Part shown: one piece after another, positions 1 to 52,261 of the stretch
How the letters are laid out: the number at the start of each line of letters is the position of its first letter
Numbering within the stretch: the first letter of the stretch is position 1
NCBI GenBank assembly: GCA_905178155.1
Contig: CAJINV010000019.1
Coordinates: forward strand, 440,475-504,474
DNA: 64,000 nt
Direction of reading: 5' to 3'
Source: Amoebophrya sp. A120
Lineage: Eukaryota; Protista; Dinoflagellata
Translations under genes and position numbers: made by a program
The notes under the pieces: generated by a model
Seen by the model: only the letters and a program-made list of their open reading frames with translations
Databases searched by the model: none
What the model was told of the DNA's origin: nothing

Positions 1-1509
1 GTCTCCCGCGTGATTACCGGCGTCCCTGAGTCCGCCCCACCCGCGGTTCGGTCTCGTTCATTGCGGAATTGCAACTGGCCCATCGACTGGTGTAAACTGG
101 CGCTCGAGGACGTTAGCTGACTGTAGATGCTGTGCATCAACGGGTCGCTCGTCAGCGACTTACCGAGGTGACTCGGGTACGATTTTTCGCACGTCTGCAC
201 CTGTTTCTTCAATTCGTCCGTGAATTGCCGGTAGTTCTGCTTCTGGCACTTTCGGGCGATATCGTTTTGCAGCTTGTCGAAAAATAAATGAAGCGGTGGG
301 GCGTTGAGCTTGTTTGCAGCCACTTGGTGCTGTTCCGATAGTGCCAGCTGTTCACCGTCCAGCCTCCTGAAATCCAGAATTATCGCGAGCACCTGCGTCT
401 GCATGGAGGTCAACGTGAAGAAATTCGCGTCGCGGTGTCTCGGACTGTTTCCGATGTCCGGGTGCAACGGGAAGATTTCGCAAATGAGTTTCGGTAGAAT
501 CTCGTGCTGGATGAACGCGAGCACGGCCTTCGGCGGTGCGTGATTATTCTGCATGTTGTTCCCGAACCCGGAGAGGCTCTGCCCAAATAATTGGTCCGCA
601 CCCCGTGCGGACCGGGGGGACGCTTGCTGGTAGCGCGGCGACTATCCTGATTAAAAACGTCGCCACACCAGAGTCCAGATGGGAAATCTGCTAGACAAAT
701 CAGCCAGCTTTGGTTGTTTGGCATGACAAGTCTGCCCTCGTGGTGTAATCCTGTTATGTTTAGCTAGTTCAGAAGCATCACAGATCTAGCACATCGTGCT
801 GATAGGAGCATGACAAATTCCAAAACACGAATAGAGCATGCTTCTCAGAGGGCTCCGCGTGAGAAACTTTTTTGGCATGCAGAATTGCATGACAACTATG
901 GGGTGGGGACGTCTTTACACGGGATAGCGATTGCGAGGGGTTCATCGACCCCCGTGGGGATTTGGTGCCCTCATTGTACAGGTTGTTCAACCCGTTGTTT
1001 TCCTTGCCCATTTGTTTGTTGAAATCGTGCTTGTACTTGGGGAACACCTGCACCATGAGAAACAGCGCAATCACGCGGATGTCAATGTGGTGCTGCGACT
1101 CCGGAATCAAATCGCTACTGCCGAAGTTGATGCTCTGTTGTTGCTCTTGCGTAGGAGAAGAGCAGGAGCTTGAACTGCCACCAGAACCAGAACCCAAAAG
1201 TCCCGCCTGTCCCGCAGCTCCGGAATTCTTGAAGCAGTTCAACGTCCCCAGGGTGGAAAACAGCACCCAGTAGCTCATGGCCACGTTCTGGGGGAATTTT
1301 TGGACCAGCTGCGCTACCTTCGGGGACTGGCAATACTCGTACCACTTTTCCTTGGAAATCCGGCCGGTTTTTTTCACGTCGGGGACGGAATTCACCATGT
1401 GCTCGACAAACGCAATCACTTTCTCCATATACTTGCTCGTGCCCCGCCACGACGGCTCACTGAAGTTGCACACGCCGTGCTCGATTATCTCCTGCCGCAC
1501 GTACAACAT
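1..1509 (-). CDS. 5' part of a gene of unknown function (weakly TBCCD1-like N-terminus); runs off the window edge
   Basis: ATG at 1509. Excising element 643-926 plus one direct repeat joins ...NPSQS to PRYQQ...AVLAFIQHEILPK..., which stays open to base 1. The family guess rests only on LYVRQE and IDIRVIALFLMVQ. Confidence 0.7.
643..926. mobile_element. Introner non-canonical intron (TATCCT..CCCCAC family)
   Basis: TAT...ATA TIRs; flanking direct repeats (DR) GCGAC/GCGAT; excision restores frame. Confidence 0.85.
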
Positions 1510-3606
1510 TTTGAAGTCCAGGACTTGAAAACTTGTTGAGATAAGTACACCAGCACTTCCGCGGTTTATTTCTATCTAACAATACTCTGGAGCGAAGGAC
1601 GAAACCCTGTATCAGGGGCGCAAGCAAAGCGAAATCCAAAGCAGAGTACCTCTTGCAACTGACGCTAGGACGACAAGTACGACTTCCAAGTAACTACATA
1701 TCCACAACGATGGGATGAAAGAACGATCATTTTTGACTTTTGAAAGCGTGCTAAACTTTATTGACGCATTTTTTCACTACCACGCGCTACTCTCTTGGAA
1801 ATAAGACGTGCGTGATATTGACAAAGTCGAACAGACACAGACCACCGCTGATTGGAAACGGTTAGACCCCCTTTTGTGGCCCCGGGCGGTGCGGCAAAGA
1901 CCCCGCTCGCTTTGTTCCTTTTTCGAGTGATAATTCTTTAGAGAGAGAGAGAGATAACCTACATAGTTGAACTAGGCAGGACAGTATACGACGAACATCA
2001 CACAGAAGAACGCTGGCCTTGCTCCCGTCCAACTGCTAGCGTGATGCCTCTCCGCCCACCTCGCAGCGCCTTCAGAAATGGCCCGGCTGACTACTCTCGG
2101 GTCGGATGCTGCTCGCGGATGCTGCTTGATGTGATCCTGTTGCCCTAGCCGAGGTTCTGCTTTCAGGTCGTACAGGCCTGGTAGAGGGCGACGAACTAGA
2201 CCGAAGACTAGAACGCCCCCCCGCTACCGCGAGGTTTTTAGTAGTCAGATTGCGTCAAGGCCGGCCGGAAGACACTGGGATAGTTTACCTGTGGCCTTGT
2301 AGCCCGAGTCTGATTCAAACCGTTCTACGCGCTGATGTCATCCTCCATGTCCGTGAAGAGTAAGGCGGCATGTTAAGGGGGAATTGAGATGACGGGGAAC
2401 TTAAAAAAAAAATAAAAGGCAATCGAAAGCAAACTAGTTCCCCGGCTCGACATGCGGCGACGCTGCTCTTCCACGCAGCGCCCCGGCGAGCAGTTGACGG
2501 GGCACTCACTCACTGGACAGGCCGTCTCCCGCTCAGCGGCGTGGCGCGGCTGTTCTACCAGGAAAGCACTACAGATAGCTTTGCCGCTACTATTTCTATA
2601 TTTTTCTTTCTATTATAGCTATTATTATTTAAGCTACTGCAGCGACGGACCTCGGCGGCGCATCCATCCGGTGAGCGAGTCAGGGCAGTTTGTGCTGGAC
2701 GCATATTGTTTGTGTTTTTTGACCGCCGTGTGTGTGTGTGTTTCTTCGTCAACGTCCTTATGTGTGCACCCATGTGAGACTAGCGCTACCGGGGGGCTCT
2801 TCCTGTCCCCCCGGGTCCTAATGTGTTTTGATTTGGAAAGGGGTAGTATCCGTTCTCAAACAAACGCAGGATCACACGCAGGATCACACGTACTGAGACG
2901 TACTTAAGATTGTCAATAAAATAAAAATTACGAGGACTTCTAAAGTTCTTCTGGTTCTTGCTTAGTCTTGGCTAACACACAACAAATTCAAGGATGCAAC
3001 ATATTTTCACTTTGTTCGTTTGTTTCCTGCTCTATGTGTTGATCGCGCGAAAGGTCCATACATTGCAACTCGATTTCGCCTAGAAATGCGAGAATCAAAT
3101 AAAAGTGGTTGCGATTGGTCTCGTGTGGATTATCTTTCTTGTGGTCCAGCTTCACGAGGTAGTCGACCCCACAATAGATTTCTATGGATCACATGATCCG
3201 GGAGTCACGACGACCTACAGATCTCCTGGTCTCGGAACATCGCCACGATTCATTAGTCATCGCCGAGTGATAATTCTTTAGATTCTTGAATTCTGAGTAG
3301 TTTTCCTCTTCATGATTCGGTGTTTCCTTCCCAACATATTTTCCATAGAGCCTTCTCAAAACGTCGATCCGGCTTGTTGCATCCAAATTCTATTCATCGT
3401 CTTCTTCACAGATTCTCTTCGCAGTAGACCTGCTCACGACGACGACTTCTAAAATTCAGATGATTACTCGTGTATGCTGGAATCGAGAAACACAACTTCC
3501 AAGTACAGATCTTCCAACAGGGTTGTACCACAGCCTCTTCCAGATGCTGTGGAAAACGAAAAGCAGCTCATGTTGTGGAGAAATGAGAGTATCATCCCAG
3601 CACCAC

Positions 3607-12283: not shown

Positions 12284-13982
12284 GTGATTATTTCACACGA
12301 TGCCACCTACCGGCAGTAACAAGAGCAGGAGTGCATCTAGCCATGCCGGTGGAGAGATAAGAAGCAAGTACTTAATACACACTTACAGACCGGGTAAGCA
12401 TCTATTTTCAAAACCTGCTGCTCTCATTCATAGGTAATTCTTTTTAGTCGACCCATAAAACGATGAAGTAAAACGGGAACTACGGCTGAAGACGTGAATT
12501 AGACGATACAACGCAGGGGCTCTGTAGTCGCATCTGCAGGCACGATAAAGGACGAACAGTCGCCGACTAGAAGGCTTCAACAAAGACAACTGACACGGAC
12601 GAAGGTCACGGAACGAGCGAAACGGCGTACCAAGCGAGAGAGAACGGCAAGAGCAAACTGCTTTGCGCACTGGCGTGGAAAGAAGATACGATGATGAAGC
12701 CGCAGCTTTCTTGCATAGCATAGAACGACAACGAGAGATGGTAGATAATACAAACAAGAACTCTAGAAGAAGTACAAGACGACGAAAACAGCAACACCAC
12801 CAACGCGCTCGCCCGAAGCAGCAACTGTGTTTGTTTCAGAATAATTTGCATGGGGAACTGGTCATGTGAAGCGACGGCATACCGGGTTGCGGAATACCAG
12901 CGTCGTCTTCATCCGTCTTTCATCGGGCTCCGATCTGAATTCTTGGGTCGTCGGGGGGACTACAGAGTACGAAATCCTTTCTTGTCATTCTCCTGCATAA
13001 GGCAGATGTAGTTCTTCGGATTCCGCTTCTGTTTCATCCTCCACACGGACTGTTTTTTCATGCAACGTGGATCAGCAAGAAGCAACGTAGGGGACAAAAA
13101 GTTCTACGTTGTCTTCAAGCGGAAGCGTGGAAATAAATGTTGCATGAAACTCACGAGCTGTTCGCGCGGTATTCTCTGTGGGAAAGGGGGGGGGTTCATA
13201 ATGTACTAGCGGGTGCGGCGGGATGTCTGAGGTTGCTCGGGAATATTATGGGGGTGAAACTACGATTACGTTTACGAAAGATATTAATCACAGAGGGAAC
13301 AAGGCACATAACAACGGTTGATTTACATTCTCCTCTTCTTTCACCTAAATGCGCGAAAAAAAATTGTTACTGTAAAAAATGTGGATCTTAGTAAGTCTTT
13401 TCAGAAAGCAGTGCATGCGAAGTCTTGTTGTAATTGTGAACGTGCTGTTGAAAAAGCAGTTGCAACTGTGAAAAAAATTTGAAAGAGAAAAAAGCCAACG
13501 TACTATATTGAAAAGTGACACTGAAAAAAATGCGAAGAGTCATAGTGCGAGTTTTCTTACGTTTGTGCGGCATGTAAAAATGCTTAACTGTACAGCTTTC
13601 GTTTGTTCGAGTTGAAAAAACTTTTTCTTTCGAAAGAAGTTATAAACGGACTAAAGCGTGAAGCTCTAGAGAGAGCAGCTAGTTTTTGTCTGTTCTGCTT
13701 TTGCTTTTTGCTTCATGCCTAAAGCATGAAGCAAAAAAATTTTGTTCTCTTCTACTTTCTTCTTTCATCCCTCTCCGACAACGACGAGCATCTCAGCGTT
13801 AGCAGCATTGAAATTCCGGGGCTCGGTATCCATGAAAAAAACTATTGCGTAGTACATGCCTCAGGTTGATGCACACGTTAGGTCAACGCTTGGACTCCTG
13901 AAACAACGTCCAGCATAGCAGTACCGATTCAGTGTCCTGCGTCATCGGAGTTGATGTTGCAAGCTGTGGTGAGCACGAGTGA

Positions 13983-14219
13983 GAACAGGAAGCGGCGCGC
14001 CGGGCGGTAATAGAGAAAATATCCGGGAAAAAGTGGGAGCAGAACGGCAGGAACGGGTCGTCGTGGCGGGTGTTAGGCGATAACAGCGCAGAAGCGATCG
14101 ACTTTGTGGCGGACAGCACCTCCTTCTGTGAGAATACGGGCAAGGAAGAATGGAAAGGAGAGGGAGCCTGGTTTGCGAAGCAGGCTGATGGGACGTGGGA
14201 GGTTGTCAGGGGAGGTTAA
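13983..14219 (+). pseudogene. 5'-truncated ORF end in cassette A (EQEAARRAVIEKISGKKW...WEVVRGG*)
   Basis: Stop-free from just after repeat 1 to TAA at 14217-14219; no start codon. Confidence 0.4.
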
Positions 14220-17134: not shown

Positions 17135-17161
17135 TGCAAGCTGTGGTGAGCACGAGCACGA

Positions 17162-18064: not shown

Positions 18065-21000
18065 TTAATATAAAAGTGCTGCACCGACGTGACGATCCAT
18101 ACAAAGCTGGACTACACACAGTTTTTTTTTCTTGGTTACTGCACCGAGATTCTGCTCCCCACCAGCACCAGGGCCAGGTTGTTCCCCTCCTCCTCCTCCT
18201 CCGTCGACCACTTTCGCCGCCGGTGTAAATTTTGCTTCTTTGCAAAAAAGTACGCTCAGCGTTTCGTTGCCGGCAGCGGTGGGCGCGCTGTCGTACTGGG
18301 CTTGCGTGTGAAGTTTGCATTTCTCGTCCTCCGCCGAGTACGAAAAAACCGCACACTCCGGGCGCTTTGCGCCGCAAACAGTCGCGCACGAGTCGAGGTT
18401 CACCTGGCCGTCTGGGCTTGCCGCCATGTGCTCACTCGGGCTTCTCGTATCCACTGCAAATAAGGATGTCTATTGGGTCTGTGAATAGGGAAGGATTTGG
18501 CATGCCTGGCGGGCACGTGGTCTCTTCTAGATGCATCTGTCATGCCTGCATGCCTGCTTCCGAAAAGCGCAATCCTGTTTTTTTTTTATCATGCAGCTTG
18601 TCAAACACGCCACAATTCATCACGCTTGCCGGTGTATTAATGTTGAAGTTGAAGTGACGAATTAGGATTAGCCTCATAACAACATTTTTTCAGACCCAGA
18701 GGACAAGTAATTTGCAATGAATATTTCGCCTCCACGATTTTCTCGTAGGTCACGGTGCCGGTAGCAACCTCGGTTGGCGTATGCACTGCAAATCTGTCTG
18801 GGTCTGGAAGGTTCTGAAACATGTCATGCACGTTTTGCATTAGCCATGGTGTCAGTGATGCACGCCCTAGCATCACAGATTTTTTGAGGGCTTCTTGATG
18901 CCTATTCCGCATGACAAATGCCCTCTCCACATAGCAAAAATTACACTCCCTTATTGCTGCTCATGCAATACAGATTTTTTTGGAATCCGAACGCTGCATC
19001 ACAAGTTGCCTTCTTCCAGACCCAGACATATTTGCATTTGATATGGCGCAGACGGGCACTCGGGCGTCACGGTGCTCACAACAGTATGCAGTTCAAATAC
19101 CGATCAGGACTCTCGAAGCGGATTCGAATTTATTTGAAGATCGCTGCTTGTACATAATCTAGTACAACTTCATGTAGATTTTCAACAAATCTGAAAATCG
19201 TCCCGACAAGTAGATCGGCGGAGAGGAGTGAGCAGTGAGAGAATGACTTATCCACCAACTGACGGGATCATTACTAGCGGGAACAATCTGTAGATGATGC
19301 GTCTATTTAAGTATTTATAATTTATCCCAATGGCCCTAATCTCCTATTTGCATTGCATAATCAACAGTGGTGCTTGAGGTGTCGGTTGTGTTGTTCCCAG
19401 TCGTGTTCGTCCCAGTCGTGTATCCTGATTCAAAACATCGTCCCCACCCTATTTCTCTTGTACGTTCTTCTGCTACACACAATTTATCAAGTGGAATCAA
19501 GAAGGTCAGTACGCAGAGCAAGTCTGGGTCCGCAGCGTGGCAGCGCCTCGCTCGCGCGGCCGCAGCACTACCTTGCGTCCTCGTTTTTGACTTGATTTAT
19601 TTTGGGACAACATACGACCCCTAGAAGTTGAAGTACTTCTCTGGGCAAACGACACCCCAGCTGGCCTCGTCTCGTGAGGATCTAGTACTATTCTAAGTTC
19701 CGCATGAAAGGAGCAGTAAGTTCTGGTGGGCCGCGTGACGCAATACCAACGAGAACGATGAACAACCTATACTAGGAAATAGACTGGCGGGGACGTTTAT
19801 TTCATGGGGGATACGGTTCCGTCGCTTGGCTCCGGGGTCGCAGGAGGCGCGGCCGTAGAAGTTGATATCAAATGCAAATGCGTCTGGGTCTGAAAGATTG
19901 CAGCTGTTTGTAATGCCGCTTTTGCATGCCCAAAAAAGTCTGGTATGCAAGCACTAGTGCCACAGTTCGCTCTACCTCTGCAAGAGCTGTACGATTTTAC
20001 GCCGCATGAGCATTCCGCTCGCAGCGTGGCCAAAAATTCCGGCCTTTTGCTCGTCTTCGTCATGCATGTTGACAGATCTGTATTTTTCTGTCATCGGCAG
20101 AGAGCACCACAAGTTTGCACCTTTCAAAACCCAGACAGCTGCACATTTGCAATGCATAGTTGGACAGGCCCCACAGTAGCGGCTGATGCCCTTCCAGTCC
20201 CCCGCATGGCCGACCTTTTTCGAAAGAGTCAGGCTGTTCCCGTTTGCGAAGTCGTCAGCTTCACCAGCCGCGGAGCTGTACAGGGCGCAGGAGCGCTTCC
20301 CGGCTGGATTGTTTTCCCGGGGTTCGTACTCCGCAAACCCGACACAGTTTGGCGCCCCTGTGCACAAAGCTTTGCATTCATCGTGCGCTTTGTCTGGAGC
20401 GTATTGAGGGCTGAGCAGAACCAAATCGGCGAACGCGGGACTGATTTTCACCCAGCAGTTCTGGTCTTCGCCGTCGGCCAGCAACGTCTTAAATGTCCCG
20501 CAGTCCTCAACACCTCCTGCCCCGCACTCCGGCAGCCAGACGCTGCTTTTTTCTGCGCACGTGTCCTCCGCCGCCGAACAGGTCCCGCAGTACCGACTGA
20601 TGCCCTTCCACTCGTACGGGGACGTAGCGGAGGGTACCAGTTGGAGGTCGTTCCCCGATGTGATTGCATTGTTCGCATCATTGGTCCTCAGCACGCCGCA
20701 CAGGTCCGCACCGTACTGCACGATGCCGGCGCACTCGTCGCCCAGCTCGACGCAGGCGGCCTCGCAGCCTTCGCGAGAGTGCTGGGACCATCCTGTAGCG
20801 GTCGCCGCGGGAGGCACAGTCAGTCCGCTTTGGGTCACGTCAACCATGCATTGGTTGCTCTCTCCCAGGTCACTCATATCCATGAACGTGCCGCAGTCGA
20901 CGTCGGACCCGCCGCAGCTCGGCAGCCAGCCGTTGCTGTTTGCAACGCATGGCTCGATGCACTCGTATATCGCGTCGCAGGGGGAAATGCCTCTGTCTTG

Positions 21001-25510: not shown

Positions 25511-25997
25511 TTTCCCCGAGGGTATGCTCGACGCTAAAAATATAACCTTCACCGTGCCGTCGTGTTTCAAAGTCTGGGCCTCAGCACGTACCGGTCTCAA
25601 TTTGTAATGCGGATTTGCCTTCAGATAAAGATTTGTAATGCATGACTGCAATGTCAGTACTCACTCTGGGGTTCTTGGATTTTTCAAATCTCGATATCGC
25701 AAGCTCGCGTCGGTTTCGAAGAGCCCGGTGTAAAAACTGGTTGACGTGCGGCACCCTATCAAAGTGAAAACCCAACGAAATAAAACCTTCTTGTACTTCT
25801 TTGAATTTGATTTTATCAATTTTGACTCCTCATTTCTGTTGTGGTAGTAAGTTCTGCACTACGTTCGTTCAATACCTGTTGTTTCGCAACAAAGCAGCGC
25901 GGGTCGAAGGAGGGGAAGTTGCATTCGATTTCCTAATCCTAGTTCGGAATCGACATGACCATGAGACGGGCTTTTTGCACGGAGGTTCTCAACTTTG

Positions 25998-31430: not shown

Positions 31431-34400
31431 TCATATGATCCCCTTGGGCAGGTCCTTGCCGGGAATCTTGTGCAACTCGATTGTTACCACGTCCGAGTCC
31501 GAAAAGTCCTCCCCGTCTTCGTTCCAGCTCATCTGGTATGCATTGCAAATCTGTCTGGGTGGTCTGGAAACTTGTGATGCAAGGAAGGGAATAATCACCA
31601 CACCGTTATGCGCTCCCCAGCGTGACAAGTTTTTCCCTGGTTCAGAGTTGCGTACTCCGCATGAGAAACTGCGTTTTTCGATGACAGACAAGAGGAGCTC
31701 TTCGCGGGCACGCAATACAGAGCTCAGAGTCAACGTCAAGCCAGACTAGCATGACAAATCCCGCAATCTCCCAAAGGCCCAGACATATTTGCAGTTCATA
31801 TCTGCAACCCCGCGCTCGGCCGTCTCTCCGTGCTGGATCCCTTCTCCAGAAAACTCCGCCTTCCGCTCGTGCTTCCGGCTTTGAAACCCCGCGCAGACCG
31901 CTTTATGCACGAGAATTCGAAATCGCAATACAAGACGCTGTTGGTACCATAGTGATACCGGACATTGCATGACAACCCAGACTGCTTTGCTCAGCTGGCA
32001 TGAGAGGTTTCATTGTATTCGCTATTCCGGAGCCAATTACTATTACTCATTCTCCTTGGAAAAAGGTTCTCAGCTGTAAGTTTTTCATGCAGGATACCGG
32101 CGAACAGCGTGTGCGACTGCAATGGTGTAACTCCACGGCATACTCTGTGCGAAAGCCGCGAACCCAAACTCGTCTCGGTAGTACTGGTGATCTAGCTTGT
32201 ATCCAAGAGAAATAACCTGTCACGCAGAAAATTGTAGTTGTCATGCGGGTCACGAATGGTCAGATCCATCTAGTTATTCATCTTCGCATGTGTACTATTG
32301 CAAGAAACAGCATAAGCACAGTATCAGCGAGAGGTTTTTTCTTGGATAGATCGCTGGTTCCAAATTTCTCGGCGGCGATATCGTCGGTGGAAGTAGACTA
32401 TCAACTGCAAAAATGTCTGGGTCTGGAAGGATGCAAGGTTTGTCATGCATATTTTGCATGACCCATGATGTCTGTGATGCATGCTCTAGCATCACATATT
32501 TTTAGAGGCCTTCCTGATGCCTATCCCGCATGACAAATGACCTCCCCGCGTAGCACAAACTGGGCTCGTCTTGCTGGTCATGCAATACAGATTTTTTTAG
32601 AGTTTCAAAGTTAGCACCACAAGTTCCAAACTTCCAGACCCAGACATATTTGCAATGCATATAGACAAGCTGTCCGTATTGCCGTCAACCAGCTGGTGTT
32701 GTATGGAAGCGTCAGGTTTGAAATCGTCAAAGTTGAAATAATTTGTAATGCATAAAAGTACATGACCCGAGGCGCGTGTGTTACAGAGCAGGCAAGTGAG
32801 GCCGATTGTAAGCCTGTTTGGGGTTACAGCTCGAGCTGCTAAAGTAGCATGAGAAAATCACTCTTCTTTGCCTAAACAGCATGAGAAACTGGATTTAGGA
32901 ACCGCCGAAATTTGTCATGCGCCACTTGGAAACTGGGTTCCAACTAGCATCCATTTTATGCACGACAAATTATTTCAACTTGGTCGATTTCAACTCTGAC
33001 ACATCCATATGTTGCTGTCCACCCGCATCGGCCCCGCCGGTGCTAGTATCGGCCAAACCGCTCGCGTATGCATTGCAAATGTGTCTGGGTCTGGAAGGTT
33101 GCTGCAAAGAACTCTGTCATGCTTGGGTGCTATGAATCTGAGCTCTGTCATGCGAGGTAGCGCATGGCTCCGCTTGTATGCTTGTCGTGGAAAAACGCAG
33201 TAGCACAACTTTGTCATGAATTATACGCACCGCACAGGCGTGACTAAAATTTGCCATGCTTGGCTGTGCATAAGAAGCGCTTGTGGTTCAGGATCTTTCC
33301 AAACTTGCATGACAACTTTCCAGACCTCAGCATCTTTGCATTTGATATCGGGGAGCGCATCATCCCGGCCATCAGTGGGACGACCTCGATCGGATCGTTG
33401 GAAGCCTTTTTCGATCTCCAGTGTAAAAACGCACCTCCCATGTCGCCAGAGTTCTCATGACACAGTCACAGAGTTGCATACTTAAAGAAAATTTAATATC
33501 AGGCGCATCGTCTCCGCCAACATAATGCAGGTCATATTTGTACTCGTGTTCAGTAGAAATCTCTCAACAAGAAGTCGCGTCTTGACTTCTATCATGGGTA
33601 GATGAGTTTTTACGTAGCATATTCGACGATGAAGCGGAGTCAGAGCTCGACAGCAGCGTGGGTGCGCGAAAATCTTCTCCTCGGGTGTAGGTCCCGTCCC
33701 CGAGCATTATCGACAGAAAAAATCCCCCCTCCCCATATCAAAGCGGAATCGCTGATGCTGGATTTGTGTACACACGTCAGCGCTGTATTGCAGGAAGGCA
33801 CTGCGGCCAGATCCCAAGGCTAGGTAGGGGCGTATGGGTGTAGTTGTTCAGCATGGCAAGCGGCTCCTTTTTGGGCCCAACAGCATGGCAAATTGCTTCC
33901 ATAATGGGGCGGAAGCTTCTGCCCTTGTCTTCTTGCAAGACAAATGCGATTTGTGACCTCAAGCCAGCAATACAAATTTTCGGAAACATACCTTTTCAAT
34001 ATGGGGAGAGGGGACTTTTCCTTTTGATAAGCGTCGTTTGTCGCGGAATCAGCGGACTGGGCCCCATATCAAAAGCAAATATGTCTGGGTGATGCTAACT
34101 TTGAATTCAAAAAAATCTGTATTGCATGACCAGCAAGTCAAGTCCAGTTTGTGCTACGGGGGGAGGGCATTTGCCATGCGGAATAGGCATCAAGAAGCGC
34201 TCATAAAATCTGTGTTGCTAGGGAATACATCACAGATGTCGCGGGTCGTGTAAAATCTGCATGACAAGTTGCAACCTTCCAGACCCAGACATATTTGCAT
34301 TTGATACCCCATCGGGGCGGGCTCGTCGGTCAGCAGCGCAGAGATGGCGTTTTTCGACATTTCACCCTGGGCTATGGCGAATCCCACCCGCATTTTCCTC

Positions 34401-37400
34401 TTGTCGAAGGCCGTGACGAACCTGTCATTGTTTTCGGCGTGGAATTATGACTTGCATTTCATCCTACATAGAAGCACTTCTTCGGGTTTTGTGTCCAAAG
34501 TCAAAGAATCAATGCGCCAACTTGCGTGATAAATTATACCTTCTCAAAAACGGATCCCCGAAAATAAACAGCGGGCCTTTTGGCGGTGGCACTTATCAAG
34601 CCAAACGGCGTTTAAGTCAAGCACGTCGTCCATTGGACTTTCGGTTTCGTCTTCTTTAAGTCTCGCTTTGGCATGGTTGCTGCATTTTTGCCCCTCTTCA
34701 ACAATTCGTTCTACTTTTGGATTCTGCTTTTCGTAATACTAATATCACTGCTGCATCACAAACAATAATTTTCTTTTTTCTCTAAAAACGCCTTTTGTCT
34801 TGATAACACATCCAGGGTCATGATGCTCATGGTGCAGTACTCTTTCTATCACGTGAAAAAAACGTGGCCCATCATTATACTTTTTTTTCTCAACCGAATT
34901 GCCATCAGTTCATCAGAAAATTAGGGTTTGTAAAGATGATGCTTTCGCGCATCCTAATCCTATCGTCCTTTTCCTTTATACACTGTTCCTTCTGCATGGG
35001 AGATAAGTACTTACTCTGATGCGCCGTGTGTTTTCTCAACGTGATACTCCCTTATCGTTGTCCACGTATTCCTCTGGCCGCAAGTTCAGCACTTTGTCCC
35101 CTACTGCGAGGATATGCATGGCAAAAACGAAAGAACCTGCCGCTACCGTGCTGCACCATTTCGGCTTGTGGGAGGAATTTGCATAGCACGACCTGCACTT
35201 ATTTGCGAATCATGCTCAGAGAGACCGCAAATTTTTCCCAATGCTAAAAGAAACATTCCTGGAACACGAAGAATCTGCACGACTTGGAACTACTTTTGCT
35301 CTAAAAATTGTTTGCACTCCATAGAACCCAATGTTCGGCAAGTTCGCGTAATTGGAACAGTCGCTGGCCACATTCACTCTCCTCGACAGCTCCTGGATCA
35401 AGCTCGTTGGTCATGATAGTGCACAGCTACTCCCCTTCATCCCCATTTGTCATGTTCGAATTTTTTCAACATCCTATCTTGGCCTTCTCGCCGTGTTTAC
35501 ATGACACGGTCTGTAAGCCGAAGCTGCTGCACCGGTCCGGGCCTAGATTTGTCACGTACTCAAGGCGCCATTTTGCAGCTAGGTTGTTTGTGATGCTAGT
35601 AGACATGCTCTACTAATGAGGTGGGCGAGGGGGAGTTGTATTTGTGCACTCCCATAGGGGTCTATCCAAGAAAAAAACATTGTAGGTGTACCTTTTTTGC
35701 TGGAGGAACAGCATTACAAATCTGTCGGGCATGACAGCAAAAAACTGTCATGTGCAGCTAGTACGTGAAAACGCCCTTCAATGAGCCCTAAAATGCATGC
35801 CAAGCATGACAGACGCAATTGTCTTGCATCTTGCGCTAACAAGGTTTTTTTCTTGGATAGGGTCCAGCCAGCATGCTGGTTCCGGTGTCCACCGCGACTT
35901 GGCAGCCCTCGTTCGGACAGAGCTGCGTTTTTCGGTTGTTCAGTATCAAATGCACATATGTCTGGGTCTGGAAGGGTGCAAGGTTTGTCATGCTTGTCTG
36001 GCATGACTGAAAAGTCTGTGATGCGTGTCCAAGAAATGACCCTTTTGGTTGTCATTCAAAAACGCAGTTTGTCATGCGGAAAACGCAACACGAAGCCCCG
36101 CAAATATTTCTCATGCTTGGCTGTGCATTGCAGGAAATTCACTATTCACAACTCAGCATTACAAGTTTCCAGACCCAGACATATTTGCAATGCATATTCA
36201 GCGTAATGTCACCAACGCGGATCTGCCAGTAACTCGGGTACGTCACCGGTGCCCACACCATCGGGGATGCGCACAGCTCACGGCGGTAGCCACCTGTTGG
36301 GAATAAAGGCAAGAGGGATTAAAGCTGTGAACAATTTTTTGGACCACGTGCGGCGAGATTTTTCATCAGTCTCGAAGAGGACACGAAGGACGACAGCCGT
36401 CCGCTGCACAAGCTGTCCCTCGGTTTTTCTTTTTATGCACCACCATCCTTTCAAGGAAAAAAACTTGAACTTCCAACAACTCCGTGTCAAAAAATCACAC
36501 TACCAAATGTCAAGGAGCTCGGCCCTTCGTCGGTGAGCGCGAAGGAAATAATCCCGTTGGGCACCGTTCTCTGCAGGTCGTCCAGTATGTTAAACCCGTC
36601 GCCCATCGACAAATCTCGAAACCCCAGGCCCAGGATGCCGTCGAACGGGGTCGCGGCGAAGGGCTCCGCCGACTGGGAGACTGACGCAATGAAGTTCACG
36701 TCCGAACAGATGCGACCGAGTATTACAGAGAAAAGTGCCCCCCACCCCTGAAATTGCAAAAATTTGTGATGCGAGGTTTCCAAATGAAAACTTTTTGTCA
36801 TGCATGAAAGCAGTATGAATCTTTCTGATGCAGAGTCTAGGCGTGTATCGCATCGCTTGCATAACAAGCGCCGCTCTTGCTGGGGTCTTTTGCAATACAA
36901 ATTTTTGCTATTCACGACTGGAAACCTGTGATTGTGATAGATGCAAGAGAGCGAATGTTTCGTTTGGAAAGGTTTGCAATACAAATGGGGTCGTGGGGGC
37001 ATTTTTCATTGTAATACCGAGACACAGCTTGTCCCGGACAAACCGGCCCTCTATGTCCCCTGTGCCGAAGCTGATCTGCGCCTCGCTTTGCCCCTGGTCG
37101 TTGGTCACGAACTGGGCGTCCGGGTTGGTTTGCTGGTTCAGATCGTACTTCCGGTGCCGGTCGCACCCGGCGCCGTGGCACAGCGAAGACGGGAGGATCA
37201 TGTTGCCGCTCCCAGTGTCAAAAATCACGTTGAAAAACTGTTGTTTATCCGGGTGCGATCCCAGTGCGATCTGGCCCCAGTACGCGGTCTTGTGGACAGT
37301 GGTCACCCCGGACATGTACCGCTTCGTGGTGAACAGCAGACTGTTCTGCGACATCGCCATGCCCGCGCGCCTCTTCTTCCCGTAAACCGACGTCGGTGCC

Positions 37401-40153: not shown

Positions 40154-43100
40154 CTACGAGTTTCCGCTCTCCCCGCCGGCCATGTTCAGCGTGCTCCTTG
40201 GTCCCTGCTGCTGCGCCGCGGCTCGGGTCACTTCTAAGAGCAAGGAGGGCACGCTGGACAACTCTTCAAACGTGCTGGTTTTCGCGACCGCTTCAAAGTG
40301 CTTCAGTAGATAGCTCATGCAGTGCTTCTTCAAATTTCGCGCCATGTGGCGGTCGGCAATCTTCAGCAAGTGGCAGCAATTGTCGATCTCGACATCGTGG
40401 ATCAAAATGTTCTCGCACATATCAAATGCAAATATGTCTGGGCCGGGAAGAATGCAGGAGTTTGTCATGCAGATTTTGCGTGACCCATGAGGTCTGTGAT
40501 GCATGCCCTAGCATCAGAGATTCTGCGCGAGCTGTCTAATGCTCATGCCGCATGAGAAATGCCCTCTCCGCGTGGCACAAATTGCGCCTCTTTTGTTGTT
40601 CATGCAATACAGATTTCATGTAGAGTCCAGAGGTAGCGTCACAAGTTGCATCTTTCCAGACCCAGACATATTTGCAATGCATAGCACACGTGCTGCAACG
40701 AATCCAGGGTGTACCTGGGATCAAAAATCATTGTGGACGTATCAGAACATCCATCCAGCAACAGGATCATCTCGGTTCTAATTTCTTGCCACGTGCATTC
40801 AATCAAGAAGTGGCACATCTTTACAAAAAGATACTGTCGGCACGACAGCGCAACAGAGAGCCACTACGAAACAATCACGCGAGCCTCGACCGACTCAGTT
40901 TACACCCGCGTAATTATGTGTAAAAAGTGGTAACTGCAGTAGAACCGGCCGCTTTTTTGAGTTTGTTCTACGCTGTCAATCTTTCTGGTCTCCCACGTAC
41001 TCTTGGTTTGGGGCAATAAAACGTGTGACCCCCTGTCATGGAAAGAAATTTGAGGCAGTAGGAGAACTTCTCCTACCGGTCACCGGTGACAGGCGATTGC
41101 GCGATAAAATCGGAACATCTATCTTTCGCTTCGAATCATCAGCAGTACTTCCATCATGTACAAATTGAAATTTTACACCAAATGCTTAGGATAAAAAAAT
41201 CAATATAGCAATACTGATCTGCCAATCCGAGCACTTCTGTCATGTGGTGCACTGGGAGGTCTTGCGGTACTCTGCCCGTGTAAATCCACTCCAACAAAGC
41301 TAGAAACGCCACTTCGCCCCAGCCTTCTATTATTATCTCCTTCTCGATACCTTGGGAATTGATGTTGGCAGCTGTCTTTTCAATTTGCAAAGAAAAGACA
41401 AAAAGCGAGCAATGCATGACAAAAACCTGCATTTCCAGTGTTCATTTGTTTCTTCTTTCTACTTGCACATGAGGTTCTTGCACGTAAAGCCAAGAGAAAA
41501 AGTACTTGAAGTACTTTCTTTCATCCCTGCACTGAATAGCGCCTTGAAGTGCGGACACTGTGCGATCAAGATGGCTCGGTGCGCGTAGATTTTTCTTCCC
41601 TGCACCGTGAAAGTCACGTCAGAAAACTCCGGATTGTTGAGAAGCTGTGGAATTTTCATTTTTTTCTCGAGTTTCGCATATTTTTTGCATTCCCGCATTT
41701 CTTGCCACATGATGTGCGCGCATGACAATAATGATTTTCTGACAAACATAGTACTCAACCGCCTATATTATTCAGTACCCCTTTCAGATTTTGTATCAGG
41801 GTGTGCACGCTGGTTGTTTCCAAATCGTTCTCCTCCATTCTGCCAACGTCCAAAACGTGCAGGTTTATCCCGTGCAAAAGTATCGCACTCGTCGAGTACC
41901 AATGGGAACCATGCATGACAAGTGTAGTCCATTTCAGGCCAGACTGGCATGAGAAACTTCTCATTAGTCACGCTGAGCAGCTCTGTGAAGATCATGCAAT
42001 GACTACCAAATGCAACATACTTTTGCAATCCATATGATCCTGAAGCCACCTGTTTCCGTCGAACCCACCAAAGATGTAAATCCGCTTCGATCCGATCAAA
42101 CTCGCGCTGTGTCGCTGTCGGCCCGGCGTATGGATTGCAGAAGTAGCGCACGACTACTAGTAGTAATTGCATGCAATACAAGTTGGCTCAGCATGTTGAC
42201 ACCAAATGAAGTTCTTTGTCATGCGGATTCAGCTTTGGAAATGGAAAATCTGTCACAACTTGCATGAAAATTGCTACCACCACGAGAAGTTGATGTACGG
42301 TACTTGTGCAATTATGGATACGGTGGGGTCTGCGGCGATTCGGACGGCCAGGTGGGCCGCAGCCATTTCCGCTCCTGGGCGTCGAGGATGTAGAGTTCGT
42401 TTGTCCTGCCCTTCTATCAAATGCAAAAGTGTCTGGGTCTGGAATGTTGCAGGGTTTGTCATGCATATTTTGCACGACCCATGATGTCTGCAATGCACGA
42501 CCTAGCATCACAGATTTTTAGAGGGTTTCCTGATGCCTGCTCCGCATGACAAATGCCCTCCGCGCGTAGCACAAACTCGACTCCTCTTGCTGGTCATGCA
42601 ATACAAAGCTTTTTAGAGTACAAAGTTAGCATGACAAGTTCCAACCTTCCAGACCCAGACATTTTTGCATTTGATACCTTCCCGTCGTAGCCGCCGAAGA
42701 GCAAGATCTTGTGCCCAATCAGCGTGGCGGTGTGGCCCCGCAGGCCCGGGGGCGGGGTGCCCAGGATTTTATTGTGAGGAAAAATCCCCCCTCCCCATAC
42801 CAAAGCGGGACACTTGTGGAGATTTGTGATGCTGATTTGTGGCCACAAATCGTCTCTGTATTGCAAGACGGCAAACCAAAAAACCCCGCCGCGTTATGCA
42901 GGCAATTTGTAATGCTGTATGGCCTGCAGCGAATGCGCCTGCCTTGCTAGGTGCCTACACCAAAACGCTCCGACTCAGGTTCTGTATCTGGCTGCAGTCC
43001 TCTACTGCAAGTTTGTATACACAAATTCCGCATCACAAATTTCCATTTCGATATGGGGAGGGGAGATTTTTCTTCTTGATAGATTTCGGGCTGCGACCAC

Positions 43101-44656
43101 TGGAGCTTGGTGGTGTCGAAGATGTGGAGATCGGTTAGATGCTTGTTACCGGAGTGACCACCAAACAGGTACAGGTGCACGCCGATTACCTGTATGTTGC
43201 GACAAGGGAGCGGTTTCATTTGCATGTCGTTCTGCTTTTCTCGCCGCGTCATGGGAAAAAAAGCGAATATCATGCAAAATATTTTGGCGCATTCTATACT
43301 GCATGGCAAAACTTCAAGTGGTACTCGGATTTGAGGTCTAGAAAAGCCTGCACATTACTGTCATCGTGTGCGCGTTCCTTGCTTGCGGGAGGGTTCCAGC
43401 TAGTGTTGGGTGCATCCAGGTCATGGTTTCTAGATCCAAAATGTCCATGTCATTGAAACACTTGCTCCCGTCGTACCTGATTAGATTTCATTTTATTATC
43501 GTATTGCAAAACGGGAATGATCACAGCCTGATCTTTCTCGTTCTGTCAATACATTATCGAACTGCAGTAAAAATAAAACGGTACTTGCAAAAATCACATC
43601 AATTACCCGCCAAACATGTAAAGCTTCCAGCCTAGTCTTGTCAAAGTGTGACAAGCGCGCGCTGCCGGTGGTTGCCCGCTGGTGTTCGCTTTTTGCCACC
43701 TGAGCTTCTCGTACATGCCGTCTACATTCGTGTCCAGAACGTACCTGATAGAAATGGGTGCATGATGCATTTCTTTTTCTTTCAGTAGCTACGACGCGCA
43801 TGATGACACCTAAACGCACCTCCGAAAAAATCCACACGCCAACATCGCAGCAAATCGAAACAATAAATCCACTATTGCTAAATCGTACATGTCTGCCAGC
43901 CACTTGTTGCCGTCGTGCCCTCCGTGCACCATCAATTTCTGGTCTACAACCGCTGTTGTATCCTATGTAAAAACATCCCCACCCCGGAGTTGTCATGCAG
44001 ATTTGCAATGACAAGAACATTTGTGATGCGCATCCCGATGATGGGCATTTCCAGTCGTGTCTTGGTGGAATTTGTAATGCTGTAAACAGGATACGCATCT
44101 CGATTTGTAATACGGCTGTCCTTGCTAACCTGCACTACACTACGGGCTGCAACTTGTCATGCGTGGCGTCCAAAACTCCTGGATCTGTGTTGCAGAGATC
44201 CCAACTTAACTATGGGGTGTTTTATGTACTGGAAAAGACCAAAATTAAAGCACAGAGAAGTTTTGAACTTTGTTGAAGTTAAAAGAGAGAGAATGACGTA
44301 GGTGAAATACGTAAATATGAATAATGTGGCCACATATCAATCTAGACTACTGCGATGCGCGTATTGTGGGGGCTGAGGACTTCTGCCCTCGGGGTCCCGC
44401 AGGCTCGGGGATTGGGGTGGGGACATTTTTACACAGGATATGTTGAGTGGTTATTTCTCGCGGACGGCGCATCGGCGTTTGGGAGAACCTCCGTCCAGAG
44501 GTTACTGGAGACGGACAGGATGTTCAGATCGTTGAGCGCTTTTTTCCCGTTCCAACCGCCAAACACGTACAACTTCATGTCGATCACATCGCAGCTGTGC
44601 GCCGCCCGGGGACCCGGGCAGGACTGGGTCGTGGGAGTGGTCCAGAACGTGTACAT
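40154..44656 (-). CDS. Kelch-repeat plus C-terminal BTB/POZ protein (LZTR1-like architecture)
   Basis: Six kelch repeats (YVFGGWNG, VHGGHDG, MFGGYDG, LFGGHSG, LFGGYDG, IFGGFDG), then FSDVTFTVQGRKIYAHRAIL..FLALLEWIYTG. Six introner and several GT-AG introns. Confidence 0.9.
40420..40683. mobile_element. Introner non-canonical intron (family A)
   Basis: Perfect DR GCACA. Confidence 0.92.
41866..42034. mobile_element. Introner non-canonical intron
   Basis: TIR TAT....TGCAAAAGTAT; DR AGGTT/TGATC; restores WLQDLHVLD. Confidence 0.78.
42129..42320. mobile_element. Introner non-canonical intron
   Basis: DR CGGCG/CGGTG. Confidence 0.82.
42415..42676. mobile_element. Introner non-canonical intron (family A)
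   Basis: Perfect DR CCTTC. Confidence 0.92.
42770..43081. mobile_element. Introner non-canonical intron (CTCCCCATA family)
   Basis: Perfect DR GATTT. Confidence 0.9.
43959..44440. mobile_element. Introner non-canonical intron (TATCCT family, 482 bp)
   Basis: Perfect DR TGTTG; TIR TATCCT.TGTAAAAA..TCCCCACCCC. Confidence 0.9.
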
Positions 44657-48026: not shown

Positions 48027-51000
48027 TTACTGTTCCCAGTCCCTAGATCGGGGGAGCGAAAAAGTGGTCGCTCGTCGCCCACCGATCCTCGTCCCGACTT
48101 GGTCGTCGGTGGGACAAAATTTCCCGACTCAAGGGTCTACCGCGCAAACCGTACCCGTCCCTGCTGTGACTGTAGTGCCCGCCGCCAACTGAAATTTTGT
48201 TTGTGTCACTTCTTTATACGCACATGACATCAAGATTTGCTCGCGACGTATGGGTTAAACTTAAACTTGAATCAATTTCATGCTCGCCTGCATGACAAAA
48301 TAAATCTATACGTCCATCCCGACTGGTGACGCCGTCCCGGCTGGACAGAATGGCGTGGTTCAGATCCCGGGTTTATCGTGTGTAAATGAGTCCCCATCCC
48401 AGAGTTCGGCGTCATGCAAAAGTGAATACCTAAAAACTTTCGCGTGCGCAGTTCCAAGAGAAGCACTTTCTACTAGTGGAGTTCTGCAATTTGTCATGCA
48501 CTAATCAGGAAAAATATATCCAAACACGGCTACTTACAATAGGTGTCCAAATTTGTCATGCGGGGCGCGTAAATTTTTCTGGATTTGTGTGGGGCAAAAA
48601 ATCTATTTTTCTATTGACTTTTGGTTGCCATCATCTTGATTACAAAGTCGTCGTGGGGACATTTTTACAAAGGATAGGCTTGGCGGCAGGGAGTAGAGTG
48701 GCTGATTTGCCTGCAAATTCGACCAGTGATCATCCCAATCGTTTCCGCTGTTCCCCGATTCTTGTCCCAGCATGCCGGGATGGTTTCCCCCAATCCGGTT
48801 TCGCCCATGCTGGTCGATGTGGGGCAGGACCCGGTTGCCCGGATTGCTACTGCTGTCTCGGTATCAACTGCAAAAAAATCGACGCACGCGTCCAAGAAAT
48901 TATTGCAGACACGGCATGACAGACATCGTTTCTTTATCTTTCCTCAACCTCATCCAGCATAATGCAACTTCTCATAAGTTGAGAAACGAACTTGCTATGC
49001 AACCCCTCCTAGATGTGCGATTCTTTTGATGCAATGCATACTCGGTAGGGCAGCGGGTAGGAGTTGGGATTGGAGTCCAGGTTGTGGTTGCCCAAATCGT
49101 GGTGCCCGAAATTGTTGCTGTTCAGATTCGGGTCCCCGCGCATGAGCATCTGCTCCTTCTGCAAGTAGTGCGCGGCCGACTTGTTGCTGGACTGCACGTT
49201 CATAGCGGAGAGATGGGAGTTCGGATGGTTGCTGTTCGAGTTGCTGTTTATGTTCCCGAAATCGTGGTTCCTGGTTGACCGCAGATGTGAATTCGCGTTG
49301 GAGAGATTCGAAATCTTCTTCGATTTGCTCCCGCGACTAGAACTGGAGGACGGCTGGGCGCCGCCGTGGCCGTCGTTGTCCATCAGGTTGTCGGTGTCCG
49401 CCATCAGATTGGTGGTTCTTCGCGACGATTTCTTCGGGTTTTTCGATTTCCGCAAGACGGTCTGGGTTTGCGACTGCGAGGGGCCGCTGGACCCGGTGCC
49501 CACCCCCGGAACGCCGCTGTCGGCGTTGCTGCTCTGCAGGCCGAAGGCGTTTTGCCCGGCGCGGCTGGTCGAGCTCATCTGCTGATGCACAATGTTCGGT
49601 GGGTGCATCGGCTGGTGCCCCGAGGGCTTCAGCGGCATCGAACTGCTCGTTTCAACGTGCGCCCCCGGGCCGCCGCCGGTATTCGCGTTCGCGTCGTGCT
49701 GTGCTGCGGGGTTCCCGGTGCCGTAGGGGAAGGGCGGCTCGGTCGGGAACATCGGCCCACCGCCGGTGCCCCCGTCGAAATCCTCCGTGTTGCTGCCGCC
49801 GTAGGGGTATTCGAAAGGAGCTGTTTTTTGGGTGGAGTGTTTGAGGAAAATTTTTCGGGAACTTTCATCATCATCTTCTGCACGTTGACAAAATGCAACG
49901 AAATCATACGTGTCAATCATGCAAGACAAACTTGTCGCAGCATCACCAGCATTCTGCAAATTTTTAGTACTTCCGTCGAACTTCTGGGCGTTGCCATGGC
50001 CGTGGCTCGTGCTTGGGTTACTCCTGCTGTATGGGACTTCAAAGGCTTCTCGTCCGTAGTATGCGTCGCTTCCCTTTGCACCGCCGGCCTTGTGCGCGGC
50101 GTGGCCCTGCGGCATTTCATTTGCACAATTATTTTTGATTCGTCCAAAAATCGAGGCTTGTTATGCTCGCGGCTTGTTCTTCTTCCTATATCGCTACCAA
50201 AACCGGTACGACGAAATCTTCCCTGTAAAAGTAAATGTACAGCTCCCGCGTGACAGACCAAAGCAAAGCACAAGAAAACACAGTACATGCGAGGCCGCGT
50301 TGCCTTGCGGATAGAAGCCACTGCTGGTTGCCGCCATTCCCGGCTCCTGAAACTGAAACTTCTTTTTCGAGCCCGATGTTGTTTTTGTTCGTTCTCTTTC
50401 TGGCGAGTCCATTACCGTCATCTTGGAAGATTTCGGTCGCAGTTCGTCGAACCTGTTGTGAGAAAAGACTGTTGCCATGCAAATTTCTTTCGCTATCAGA
50501 CAGAAGCTGTAAGAATCGCACTTATGTACAGTGGCTAAACAAATTCTGCTGAGATGAAACAGCACCGACTATTTTTTACATTGGGTGCGCAACCGCCTGT
50601 GCCCCGTCGAGTCGGTCCCTTGGCTCCACACTATGGATCAGAAAAATTCCGAGTTGGAGTTCAAACTGATGCACAAACACAATCTGTCGAAAAAAGAAAA
50701 ACCACCTTTGTCATGCTGGAATGGATAAGCCACATCTGAAAAAGCCTCCTTTGTTATGCACAGAGCTACTGACACGACACGCGTTTGCACTTTGATGACT
50801 TCCAACCCAGACTTTTTCCTGCGTACATCTTCAATACGCACTTCATAAAGTTCATCCAGGACCGTTTTGGTATCTTGCCAACGTACCTAATTTCAAAAGG
50901 CCCAAATTTGTAAGATTTGCAAAGCAATATACCGCATCTAGACAAAAACTGGCCTACGCAAAAAAAGATGCTCTGCATTTTCGTACATTAATATGCATCA

Positions 51001-52261
51001 AAAACGACCCCACATCAACAATCAGTATACCTCTTTTCCAGGGTCTCTGGCTTGCTCATGTCCGGGAACTTCAATCCCATGAAGCGTGGATTCCGCATGA
51101 ACATTTCCATTTGTTCCGGTGTAATTGCGCCCAGCATCTTCTGGATGATGAACAACTGGTCTATTTCTGTCTCGCCGGGGAACAAGGGCTGCCCGTCGAG
51201 AATCTCCCCCATAATGCACCCGATCGCCCAGATGTCCACGGGTTTCCCGTAGCGGGTCGACCCCAGCAACAGCTCGGGGGCGCGGTACCACCTTCGATTG
51301 ATCATTTGACAATAAACTTGATAAACTTCGGATGCAACGAGAAAGAGAAACTGCAATTAATTATAACTTGGTCTCGGTAATAAACGCACTTGTGCATCAT
51401 CATCTTTGGGTTTGTCCTAGAACATCACAAAAGAGTCGGTACTGCTCCAGCTCACAAAACAACAAGTACCTTGTCGCTACGTAATCTGTTAACTCGCTGC
51501 TACTGGTCTTGCTCATTGTTCGGGCGAACCCGAAGTCGCACAGCTTCAAAGACCGGTCTTCCATGTTCATGAGCAAATTCTCCGGCTTGATGTCACGGTG
51601 TATCACGTCGTGCGCGTGGCAGTACTCTATTGCCTTTACCAGTTGCCAGACGATCAGCGTGACGGTTTCCGGCTCGATACCGTTGGGAAACATTTCCAGC
51701 ACCTCCAGCAGATTTTTGTCTACGAACTCGAAAACCAGATACCTGTTTAGTTTTTTGCAGAAGCGACTCGGTTACGAATCTTCTTCCGGAGCATGACAAA
51801 GTTCGAGACCAGCATGATCTCTACTTCCCGTCATTTTGATGTTGAGCAAATATGCATGACAAAAAACCACTCTTCTACAGTTTCCCCTTTCGTCTGAACG
51901 CCTCCTTCAGCTGCACGATGTTTTCTTGCCGCAGCATCCGGAGCATCTTCACCTCCCGCAGCGTCGTTTTCCGCACGATGTCATCGTCTTCGGACTCTTT
52001 GAACTTCTTAATCGCGACGAGTTCCCCCGTCTCCTTGTTTTATGCAATACAAATTTCCCGCACATGTACAAGATGCATCACAAATTTTACCAATTTAGGG
52101 CGTAGCACTTGTCGTGCTAAACTAGGTTCGGCGCCAAGTTTTGCCATGCAGAGACCGCATTTGTACGCGTACGGGAAATTTACTGTGGATATGTTTTGGC
52201 ACTTCAGCACGACACCGTAGGCGCCCTCGCCCACCACGCCGACCACCTCGTACTTGTTCAT
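48027..52261 (-). CDS. Cyclin-dependent kinase-like (CDKL5/LF5-type) kinase with long disordered tail
   Basis: [57 protein letters not shown]. 3' end approximate and one tail junction unresolved. Confidence 0.92.
48374..48676. mobile_element. Introner non-canonical intron (TATCCT family)
   Basis: DR GGGTT/GGCTT. Confidence 0.85.
48862..49040. mobile_element. Introner non-canonical intron
   Basis: Perfect DR CTCGG. Confidence 0.87.
50632..50825. mobile_element. Introner non-canonical intron (degenerate)
   Basis: DR CACAC/CATCT; restores LKMEPRDRL. Confidence 0.72.
52041..52191. mobile_element. Introner non-canonical intron
   Basis: Perfect DR TGTTT; restores [16 protein letters not shown]. 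Confidence 0.9.

Follow-up and report, generated by a model that had tools for sequence, protein, structure and literature searches.

What are the short, inverted-repeat-bounded insertions that interrupt coding sequence in this stretch of the Amoebophrya sp. A120 genome (contig CAJINV010000019.1, positions 440,475 to 504,474; the whole 64,000 nucleotides [nt] are the window of this study), and how might they be removed from transcripts? We count 35 such elements, spanning positions 643 to 52191 and each lying inside the reading frame of one of six minus-strand genes, and they are almost certainly the introner elements already published for Amoebophrya (Farhat 2021). The elements, their end grammar included, are already known, and the finding as first stated adds nothing in kind. 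What is added here is a probable fixed cut register relative to the element ends, the presence of elements in both orientations, an internal GCATGACAA-type motif that recurs across families, and a 1-nt exon implied by one pair of elements. The elements likely arose as miniature DNA transposons, and we tentatively propose that they are removed from pre-mRNA by a modified spliceosome that lacks U1 and is guided by a predicted hairpin of the element ends.

The elements measure 149 to 482 bp (9.2 kb when summed), with 16 in an aspartic protease gene, six each in a Cys-rich gene and a kelch-BTB gene, three each in the genes for GTP cyclohydrolase I (GCH1) and a CDK-like kinase, and one in a gene of unknown function. 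TAT and ATA stand at the two ends in 32 of the 35, and the full grammar TAT-N7-AAA..TTT-N7-ATA is present in 22. The flanking 5-bp direct repeat matches at 5/5 positions in 14 elements, at 4/5 in 9, 3/5 in 7, 2/5 in 4, and 1/5 in 1, so that 30 of the 35 retain at least 3/5. A scan for TAT..ATA pairs no more than 600 bp apart, flanked by a 5-bp direct repeat free of mismatches and with 10 or more of 16 end bases complementary, found 14 pairs in the window and 0 to 1 in each of 20 block shuffles; the set of 35 consists of these matches extended by curation along genes. Longer TAT..ATA pairings that span neighboring elements were discarded as cross-matches. By interior sequence, window elements belong to at least seven multi-copy families (clusters of 3 to 159 members), and 20 of them are singletons in the sample of other contigs described below. 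Like miniature inverted-repeat transposable elements (MITEs), they are short and noncoding, carry terminal inverted repeats (TIRs), are flanked by a target-site duplication (TSD) of fixed length, and occur in high copy number.

The first-pass annotation of this DNA had listed 34 elements of 134 to 482 bp, and we found none of 134 bp. Its statement that most share the full end grammar holds well for the outer TAT and ATA and less well for the whole pattern, and the 5-bp repeat that it described is perfect in only 14. Its estimate of at least six families, its reading of the elements as miniature transposons, and its observation that they are mixed with GT-AG introns in the same genes are all borne out, and its claim that all lie in coding sequence is correct for 35/35, with one weak candidate (12403-12717) outside any assignable frame.

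The same annotation had noted that introners with inverted and direct repeats were known from Amoebophrya, and this identity is upheld. Exons of two window genes match proteins labeled Amoebophrya sp. A120 at 100%, a third protein with this label, the kelch-BTB protein (P0088), maps exon by exon, and the elements show what defines A120 introners, namely, an inverted repeat that starts with TAT followed by seven variable bases and an A-run, a direct repeat at the exon-intron borders, and repetition in families. As far as the parts of Farhat 2021 (PMC7789003) used here go, noncanonical introns make up >60% of the introns supported by transcriptome sequencing (RNA-seq) in strains A25 and A120, and many carry inverted repeats of 8 to 20 nt and direct repeats of 3 to 5 nt, the inverted repeats of A120 opening with TAT, after which come seven variable bases and three or more A. 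The authors likened introners to MITEs and proposed, as likely, a hairpin and an "alternate splicing" mechanism; they did not find U1 small nuclear RNA (snRNA) in A25 or A120. U1 snRNA is present in a relative with GT-AG introns. In organism label, grammar, direct repeats, number of families, and mixing with GT-AG introns, these parts of the paper reveal no difference in kind from the window elements, and the shared end grammar, which already appears in section 11, is therefore not new. Unlike the present analysis, the same text holds no fixed register, orientation independence, or internal motif, and the legend of its Fig. 3 describes where the splice sites lie with respect to the hairpin as "variable" and labels the border "unknown." Our literature search found no paper giving a cut register or an internal motif; supplementary figures S19 to S25 of Farhat 2021 may show part of this. 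The same source (PMC7789003, in part) reports fewer introners in ribosomal protein genes, with which the two such genes of the window agree, as 3609-4497 and 5300-6383 (L18 by eye and S5 by Pfam) contain GT-AG introns only.

The length that is removed could be read from annotated proteins, three of which (from the Cys-rich gene P0097, the aspartic protease gene P0001, and P0088) were fitted to the DNA without reference to splice signals, yielding 27 element-bearing junctions. At 26 of the 27, exactly the element plus 5 nt is removed, and the 27th removes two adjacent elements, in agreement with the earlier proposal that removal of element plus 5 nt restores the proteins. The kelch-BTB protein rebuilt in this way hardly differs from its orthologues in other strains across its six elements, and the removal-length result therefore has support beyond the annotation. 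By contrast with canonical GT/GC..AG introns, an exact-length GY-AG pair lies near the ends in only 3/35 elements (GT-AG in each: 27773, 33415, and 42415) and at register -1, as defined below, in only 1/35; for 15/35 there is an in-frame GY-AG alternative that differs in length by 3 or 6 nt, and 17/35 have neither option within the tested range of 12 nt. The first-pass annotation had named a GCH1 element as the only GT-AG exception, which these counts correct. Among the three elements with a broken TAT or ATA end, two (33415-33621 and 27773-28077) have an exact-length GT-AG, versus 1/32 of the others, and such elements possibly mark a route from a hairpin intron to a canonical one.

The protein reveals which repeat copy is kept wherever the two copies differ, and 14 of the 27 junctions are informative in this sense. 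Register -1, in which the base just ahead of TAT is the first of the intron and the fourth base past ATA is its last, fits 27/27, while the five other registers fit 14 to 24 (P ~3e-4, rising to 1.2e-3 if any common register is allowed, in a model of independent uniform registers). Residues conserved among orthologues, taken alone at three junctions together with Val-Phe of GCH1, leave -2 or -1. All nine predominant A120 noncanonical motifs in Table S4 of PMC7789003 start with N-T, TT opens each of the nine from A25, and a T in second place of the A120 motifs is what register -1 predicts. At this register +2 is T and +3 is A in 35/35 elements, and +3 is A in 17/19 canonical donors of the window (19 GT-AG introns, 8 from annotated proteins and 11 placed by hand). 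These donors read GTA(C/T)T, with T at +5 in 13/19 and G in 1/19, and their 3' ends are A-rich and have no pyrimidine tract; such donors would fit the loss of U1 and a changed U6. We consider one fixed inner cut register probable, and that it is exactly -1 somewhat less firmly so.

One pair of elements bears on the register in a different way. Across 35412-35859, the annotated peptide is obtained if each element is cut out on its own at -1, which would leave an exon of 1 nt at 35658; because the frame is shifted when both go in one cut at -1/+4, this compound intron needs two separate removals. The elements and their host genes are as follows, with the match of the 5-bp repeat and, where the protein permits several, the possible registers.

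643..926, minus strand: gene of unknown function (ORF [open reading frame] ~1-1509); repeat 4/5; family in common with 43959
18140-21814: host gene P0097, Cys-rich, with a weak PAN match below cut-off
18448..18723, minus strand: P0097; repeat 4/5; registers -1, 0
18780..19043, minus strand: P0097; family F1; repeat 5/5
19085..19359, minus strand: P0097; repeat 3/5; registers -1, 0
19421..19813, minus strand: P0097; repeat 2/5; registers -5 to -1
19866..20158, minus strand: P0097; F1-like; repeat 4/5
21169..21470, minus strand: P0097; repeat 3/5; registers -1, 0; end pairing not predicted
25757..26000, minus strand: GCH1; repeat 2/5; element+5 or GT-AG element+2 both possible
26087..26412, minus strand: GCH1; repeat 4/5
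27773..28077, minus strand: GCH1; decayed, starting TAC; repeat 1/5; exact-length GT-AG at -4, which would give Ser where homologues carry Val/Ile
31434-37462: host gene P0001, aspartic protease
31537..31800, minus strand: P0001; F1; repeat 4/5
31904..32142, minus strand: P0001; repeat 3/5
32200..32348, minus strand: P0001; the shortest, 149 bp; repeat 3/5; registers -1, 0
32399..32661, minus strand: P0001; F1; repeat 5/5
32702..33009, minus strand: P0001; separate family; repeat 5/5
33067..33347, minus strand: P0001; F1-like; repeat 4/5
33415..33621, minus strand: P0001; end AGA, not ATA; repeat 5/5; exact-length GT-AG at -6
33708..34029, minus strand: P0001; repeat 4/5; family of 42770 in reverse orientation
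34067..34306, minus strand: P0001; F1; repeat 5/5; inverted relative to 18780, 32399, 40420, and 42415
34594..34805, minus strand: P0001; repeat 3/5; orthologue-conserved residues permit -4 to -1
34847..35046, minus strand: P0001; repeat 3/5; registers -2 to 0
35113..35323, minus strand: P0001; repeat 2/5; orthologue-conserved residues permit -2 to 0; end pairing not predicted
35412..35656, minus strand: P0001; end ATG; repeat 3/5; second half of the compound intron
35663..35859, minus strand: P0001; repeat 5/5; inserted at the left repeat of the 35412 element
35944..36196, minus strand: P0001; F1; repeat 5/5
36721..37016, minus strand: P0001; separate family; repeat 5/5
40157-44656: host gene P0088, kelch-BTB
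40420..40683, minus strand: P0088; F1; repeat 5/5
41866..42034, minus strand: P0088; repeat 2/5; orthologue-conserved residues permit -4 to -1; end pairing not predicted
42129..42320, minus strand: P0088; repeat 4/5
42415..42676, minus strand: P0088; F1; repeat 5/5, which makes the element read GT-AG at register -1
42770..43081, minus strand: P0088; repeat 5/5
43959..44440, minus strand: P0088; the longest, 482 bp; repeat 5/5
~48100-52261: host gene, CDK-like kinase
48374..48676, minus strand: kinase gene; repeat 4/5
48862..49040, minus strand: kinase gene; repeat 5/5
52041..52191, minus strand: kinase domain; repeat 5/5; removal of element+5 gives an unbroken kinase N-lobe
12403..12717, minus strand: weak candidate outside the 35, upstream of ORF 9956-12292 (untranslated region or intergenic); 13/20 end bases, repeat 4/5

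The GCH1 gene (25660-28561) also appears to have two long in-frame low-complexity insertions within its conserved fold and a long N-terminal extension.

Further copies came from a pattern derived from family F1, which matched at least 151 stretches in metagenome_contigs; 149 loci (413 kb) among the matches listed were analyzed, with elements of up to 900 bp. No locus overlaps the window at >=93% identity, and the sample may be of the same strain or of another. It holds 347 TAT..ATA elements, with an exact 5-bp repeat in 236/347, a figure to be read knowing that overlapping candidates were ranked by their 5-bp match, and with other repeat lengths at chance. Removal of element plus 5 nt gives a coding-like frame at 276/312 junctions (repeat at least 3/5), versus 180 to 189 at +0, +3, +4, and +6. 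GT-AG stands at register -1 in just 6/231 oriented elements. With the transcript strand called by a codon model, F1 copies lie 29 one way and 24 the other, and opposite-orientation copies of one family occur within the window too (F1, and 33708 versus 42770). One locus (L033, 1550-3260) holds what looks by eye like a Rab-family GTPase gene of ~230 codons, in which four elements stand alongside two or more GT-AG introns. A diverged repeat in this gene encodes Ala in its left copy and Asp in its right; Ala is presumably the residue expected in this family, which would need register -1 or 0, and a structure search did not confirm it.

Counted in both directions, the GCATGACAA-type motif has 60 occurrences in element interiors (8.2 kb) and two in canonical introns (1.6 kb), whereas 17.4 kb of exon contain none; 12/35 window elements have no match to it. 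Since this pattern was picked after viewing the sequence, an unselected 8-mer count and the other contigs are the fairer tests: the former gives 14/34 segments and 0 in exons, and in the latter the motif occurs 776 times (shuffled sequence, 3; flanking sequence of 18.5 kb, none) and is present in 25 of the 27 clusters into which 300 elements fall. An internal motif common to the families makes them look like one superfamily, so that the several families of the earlier annotation stand and their description as unrelated is put in doubt. Within F1, motifs and ends are less variable between sub-lineages, but not in private substitutions, a pattern from which we infer a role in transposition rather than in splicing.

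How the elements would leave the transcript is suggested by their ends. At least 8.9 base pairs are expected between the first and last 25 nt in 31/35 elements, whereas 16/19 canonical introns have at most 1.7 and only 3/19 have ends predicted to pair. Our results lead us to propose that a transposase or integrase encoded elsewhere inserts the elements with a 5-bp duplication, acting through the shared ends and the shared internal motif, and that in the transcript the ends would then pair, with one cut 1 nt to the 5' side of the stem base and the other 4 nt to its 3' side. The element would thereby leave together with a length equal to exactly one duplication, and the gene would be scarless. 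Such cutting could act as a filter, letting only elements with a 5-bp duplication pass to become harmless introns, and this would explain one geometry across unrelated families. In either orientation the ends would offer U-A at +2/+3, as GTA donors do, and adenosines at -7 and -5, on which a spliceosome relaxed for the +1 G and the terminal AG could act; as mirror-image ends supply signals both ways, orientation independence does not exclude a spliceosome. We favor a modified spliceosome, with due reserve, because register -1 puts U-A at +2/+3, the A25 motifs have T at +2, and U1 is missing.

The first-pass annotation had instead proposed a second, structure-guided system. Hairpin-guided definition of the ends is retained in our account, in view of the orientation independence, arbitrary dinucleotides, and predicted pairing, and a separate cutting system is kept as the slightly less likely alternative, as a register aligned with GTA donors fits a modified spliceosome at least as well. 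In this alternative a spliceosome-independent nuclease and ligase would read the end hairpin, cut in a staggered fashion at distances of 1 nt and 4 nt from the base of the stem, and join the exons; in our judgment the hairpin-guided, U1-less spliceosome edges them out. The arbitrary terminal dinucleotides and rarity of GT-AG at -1, the occurrence of both orientations, and the two separate removals of the compound intron all speak for such enzymes, and there are precedents in SOS splicing, which is set off when inverted repeats pair and which requires RTCB (PMC12779559), and in euglenid nonconventional introns, which have paired ends and leave full-length circles (PMC11282704). SOS splicing is described as imprecise, however, and removal here is exact in length, and a nuclease-ligase would leave unexplained both the T at intron +2 in the two strains and the loss of U1 where these introns occur. 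In its strongest form, this alternative would be a precise, orientation-blind RNA excision machine outside the spliceosome, measuring 1 and 4 nt from the hairpin base, deleting exactly one 5-bp target duplication, and needing no GT or AG, which we regard as rather unlikely; if true, tens of thousands of introns would be handled by what amounts to SOS splicing made precise, and any insertion of this transposon superfamily would be scarless.

We think it improbable that the hairpin is a by-product of transposon origin and that linear motifs (T-A at +2/+3 and TTT-N7-ATA near the 3' end) are read with no need for pairing, perhaps helped by a protein on the internal motif. The absence of a G-U excess in stems, the four elements that have no predicted pairing and are still absent from annotated or inferred proteins, and the low density of the motif in canonical introns and its absence from exon would all suit such reading, but old, single-copy elements keep specific complementarity within the variable seven bases, 4/9 terminal variants keep G-U in transcript orientation (small numbers), and a third of elements (12/35) have no motif match. 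Very improbable is the case in which nothing is removed at these ends, whether through cryptic splicing at nearby GT-AG sites, excision from DNA, or dead genes. In-frame GY-AG alternatives within 12 nt for 15/35 would permit it; against it stand the 17/35 that have no GY-AG option in that range and the mere 3/35 with an exact-length one, the near identity of the rebuilt kelch-BTB protein to its orthologues, and the >60% of noncanonical introns among RNA-seq-supported junctions noted above (PMC7789003, in part).

Several results weigh against a hairpin-guided spliceosome acting at register -1. Positions +1, -1, and -2 are arbitrary (27 different terminal dinucleotide pairs among 35 elements), the candidate adenosines are placed inside the stem, a very short distance from the 3' end, and the T-A at +2/+3 could be no more than a trace of the transposon end. 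End pairing is not predicted in 4/35 elements, and most tests for selection on pairing in the RNA came out negative: G-U pairs do not exceed A-C in stems (34 versus 32 in the window, 103 versus 94 in the other-contig sample), and private substitutions in 67 F1 copies are not rarer in ends (1.2%) or motifs (1.1%) than elsewhere (0.95%). Isolated mismatches of window stems show G-U 20 versus A-C 10 (p=0.049, one of ten such tests), and the 9 terminal variants in 166 elements, of which 4 keep a G-U pair in transcript orientation, are too few to show an asymmetry. The register itself rests mainly on gene models from BLAT-aligned transcripts (section 25 of PMC7789003), and the motifs of Table S4 come from an aligner that possibly favors near-canonical ends. 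A base-composition test on imperfect repeats in other contigs (52/76) did not support -1; the G/C-richer copy is the right one at positions 1 to 3 and the left one at 4 to 5, a pattern that fits no register under the prior assumption and fits -2 only if that assumption is reversed after the fact. Summed codon scores in the other-contig sample are flat across registers (386 to 393).

An autonomous transposase with the same ends, which the first-pass annotation had suggested seeking, did not appear in the window, as none of the 22 ORFs scanned, out of 117 of at least 130 amino acids, has a Pfam transposase match; no F1 end occurs in viral contigs.

Other features of the window include a ~1.4-kb intergenic stretch at 29397-30836, bounded by an inverted repeat of ~20 bp and carrying internal tandem repeats, which looks like another nonautonomous element. 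A repeat-rich intergenic block at 13900-17950 combines several copies of a ~30-bp unit with a tandem repeat of 58 bp (near 16905-17135); the plus-strand ORF in this block, at 14189-15265, has no Pfam match. A long, near-perfect inverted repeat pair lies between genes at 23980-24240 and is followed by a GC-rich degenerate repeat tract to ~25500. At 59594-63610, a plus-strand ORF of 1338 codons with no Pfam match is free of elements and runs opposite to the minus-strand gene block.

The diverged duplications point to one register (N-TAT...ATA-NNNN), which, if fixed, would show where to seek lariats or circles and so tell a nuclease-ligase apart from a relaxed spliceosome. Both possible answers matter for the origin of introns from transposons and for splicing in the absence of U1.

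Known systems resemble the window elements to different degrees, as far as the parts of the papers used here describe them. The Ginger-like introner family of A120 (PMC12130899) carries the same strain label and likewise consists of TIR-flanked, intron-generating elements; it has ORFs resembling LTR (long terminal repeat) integrases, whereas no ORF-bearing copy was found among the present elements, and it is a candidate source of the mobilizing enzyme, as a lead only. SOS splicing (PMC12779559) also removes DNA transposons from mRNA upon pairing of their TIRs, but it is imprecise, leaves indels, operates in worm and human cells, and involves AKAP17A, CAAP1, and RTCB, whereas removal in Amoebophrya is exact in length; the 26/27 junctions at element+5 do not show such imprecision, with the qualification that gene models show the main isoform only. 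The nonconventional introns of euglenids and diplonemids (PMC12501133, PMC11282704, and PMC12621601) lack GT-AG, pair their ends at a constant distance to the splice sites, have junctions that slide owing to direct repeats, and coexist with canonical introns. Euglenids belong to a different lineage from Amoebophrya, and they pair CAG with CTG at +4 to +6 and -8 to -6, whereas the Amoebophrya elements would pair U-A-U with A-U-A at the inferred +2 to +4 and -7 to -5. The MITE-derived introns of Fritillaria borealis (summarized in PMC11282704) prefer AG-AC and AG-AT ends, whereas the Amoebophrya elements fix only T at +2 and A at +3; like them, these introns have TIRs and a TSD and lack GT-AG, and their removal is credited to an adapted U2 spliceosome.

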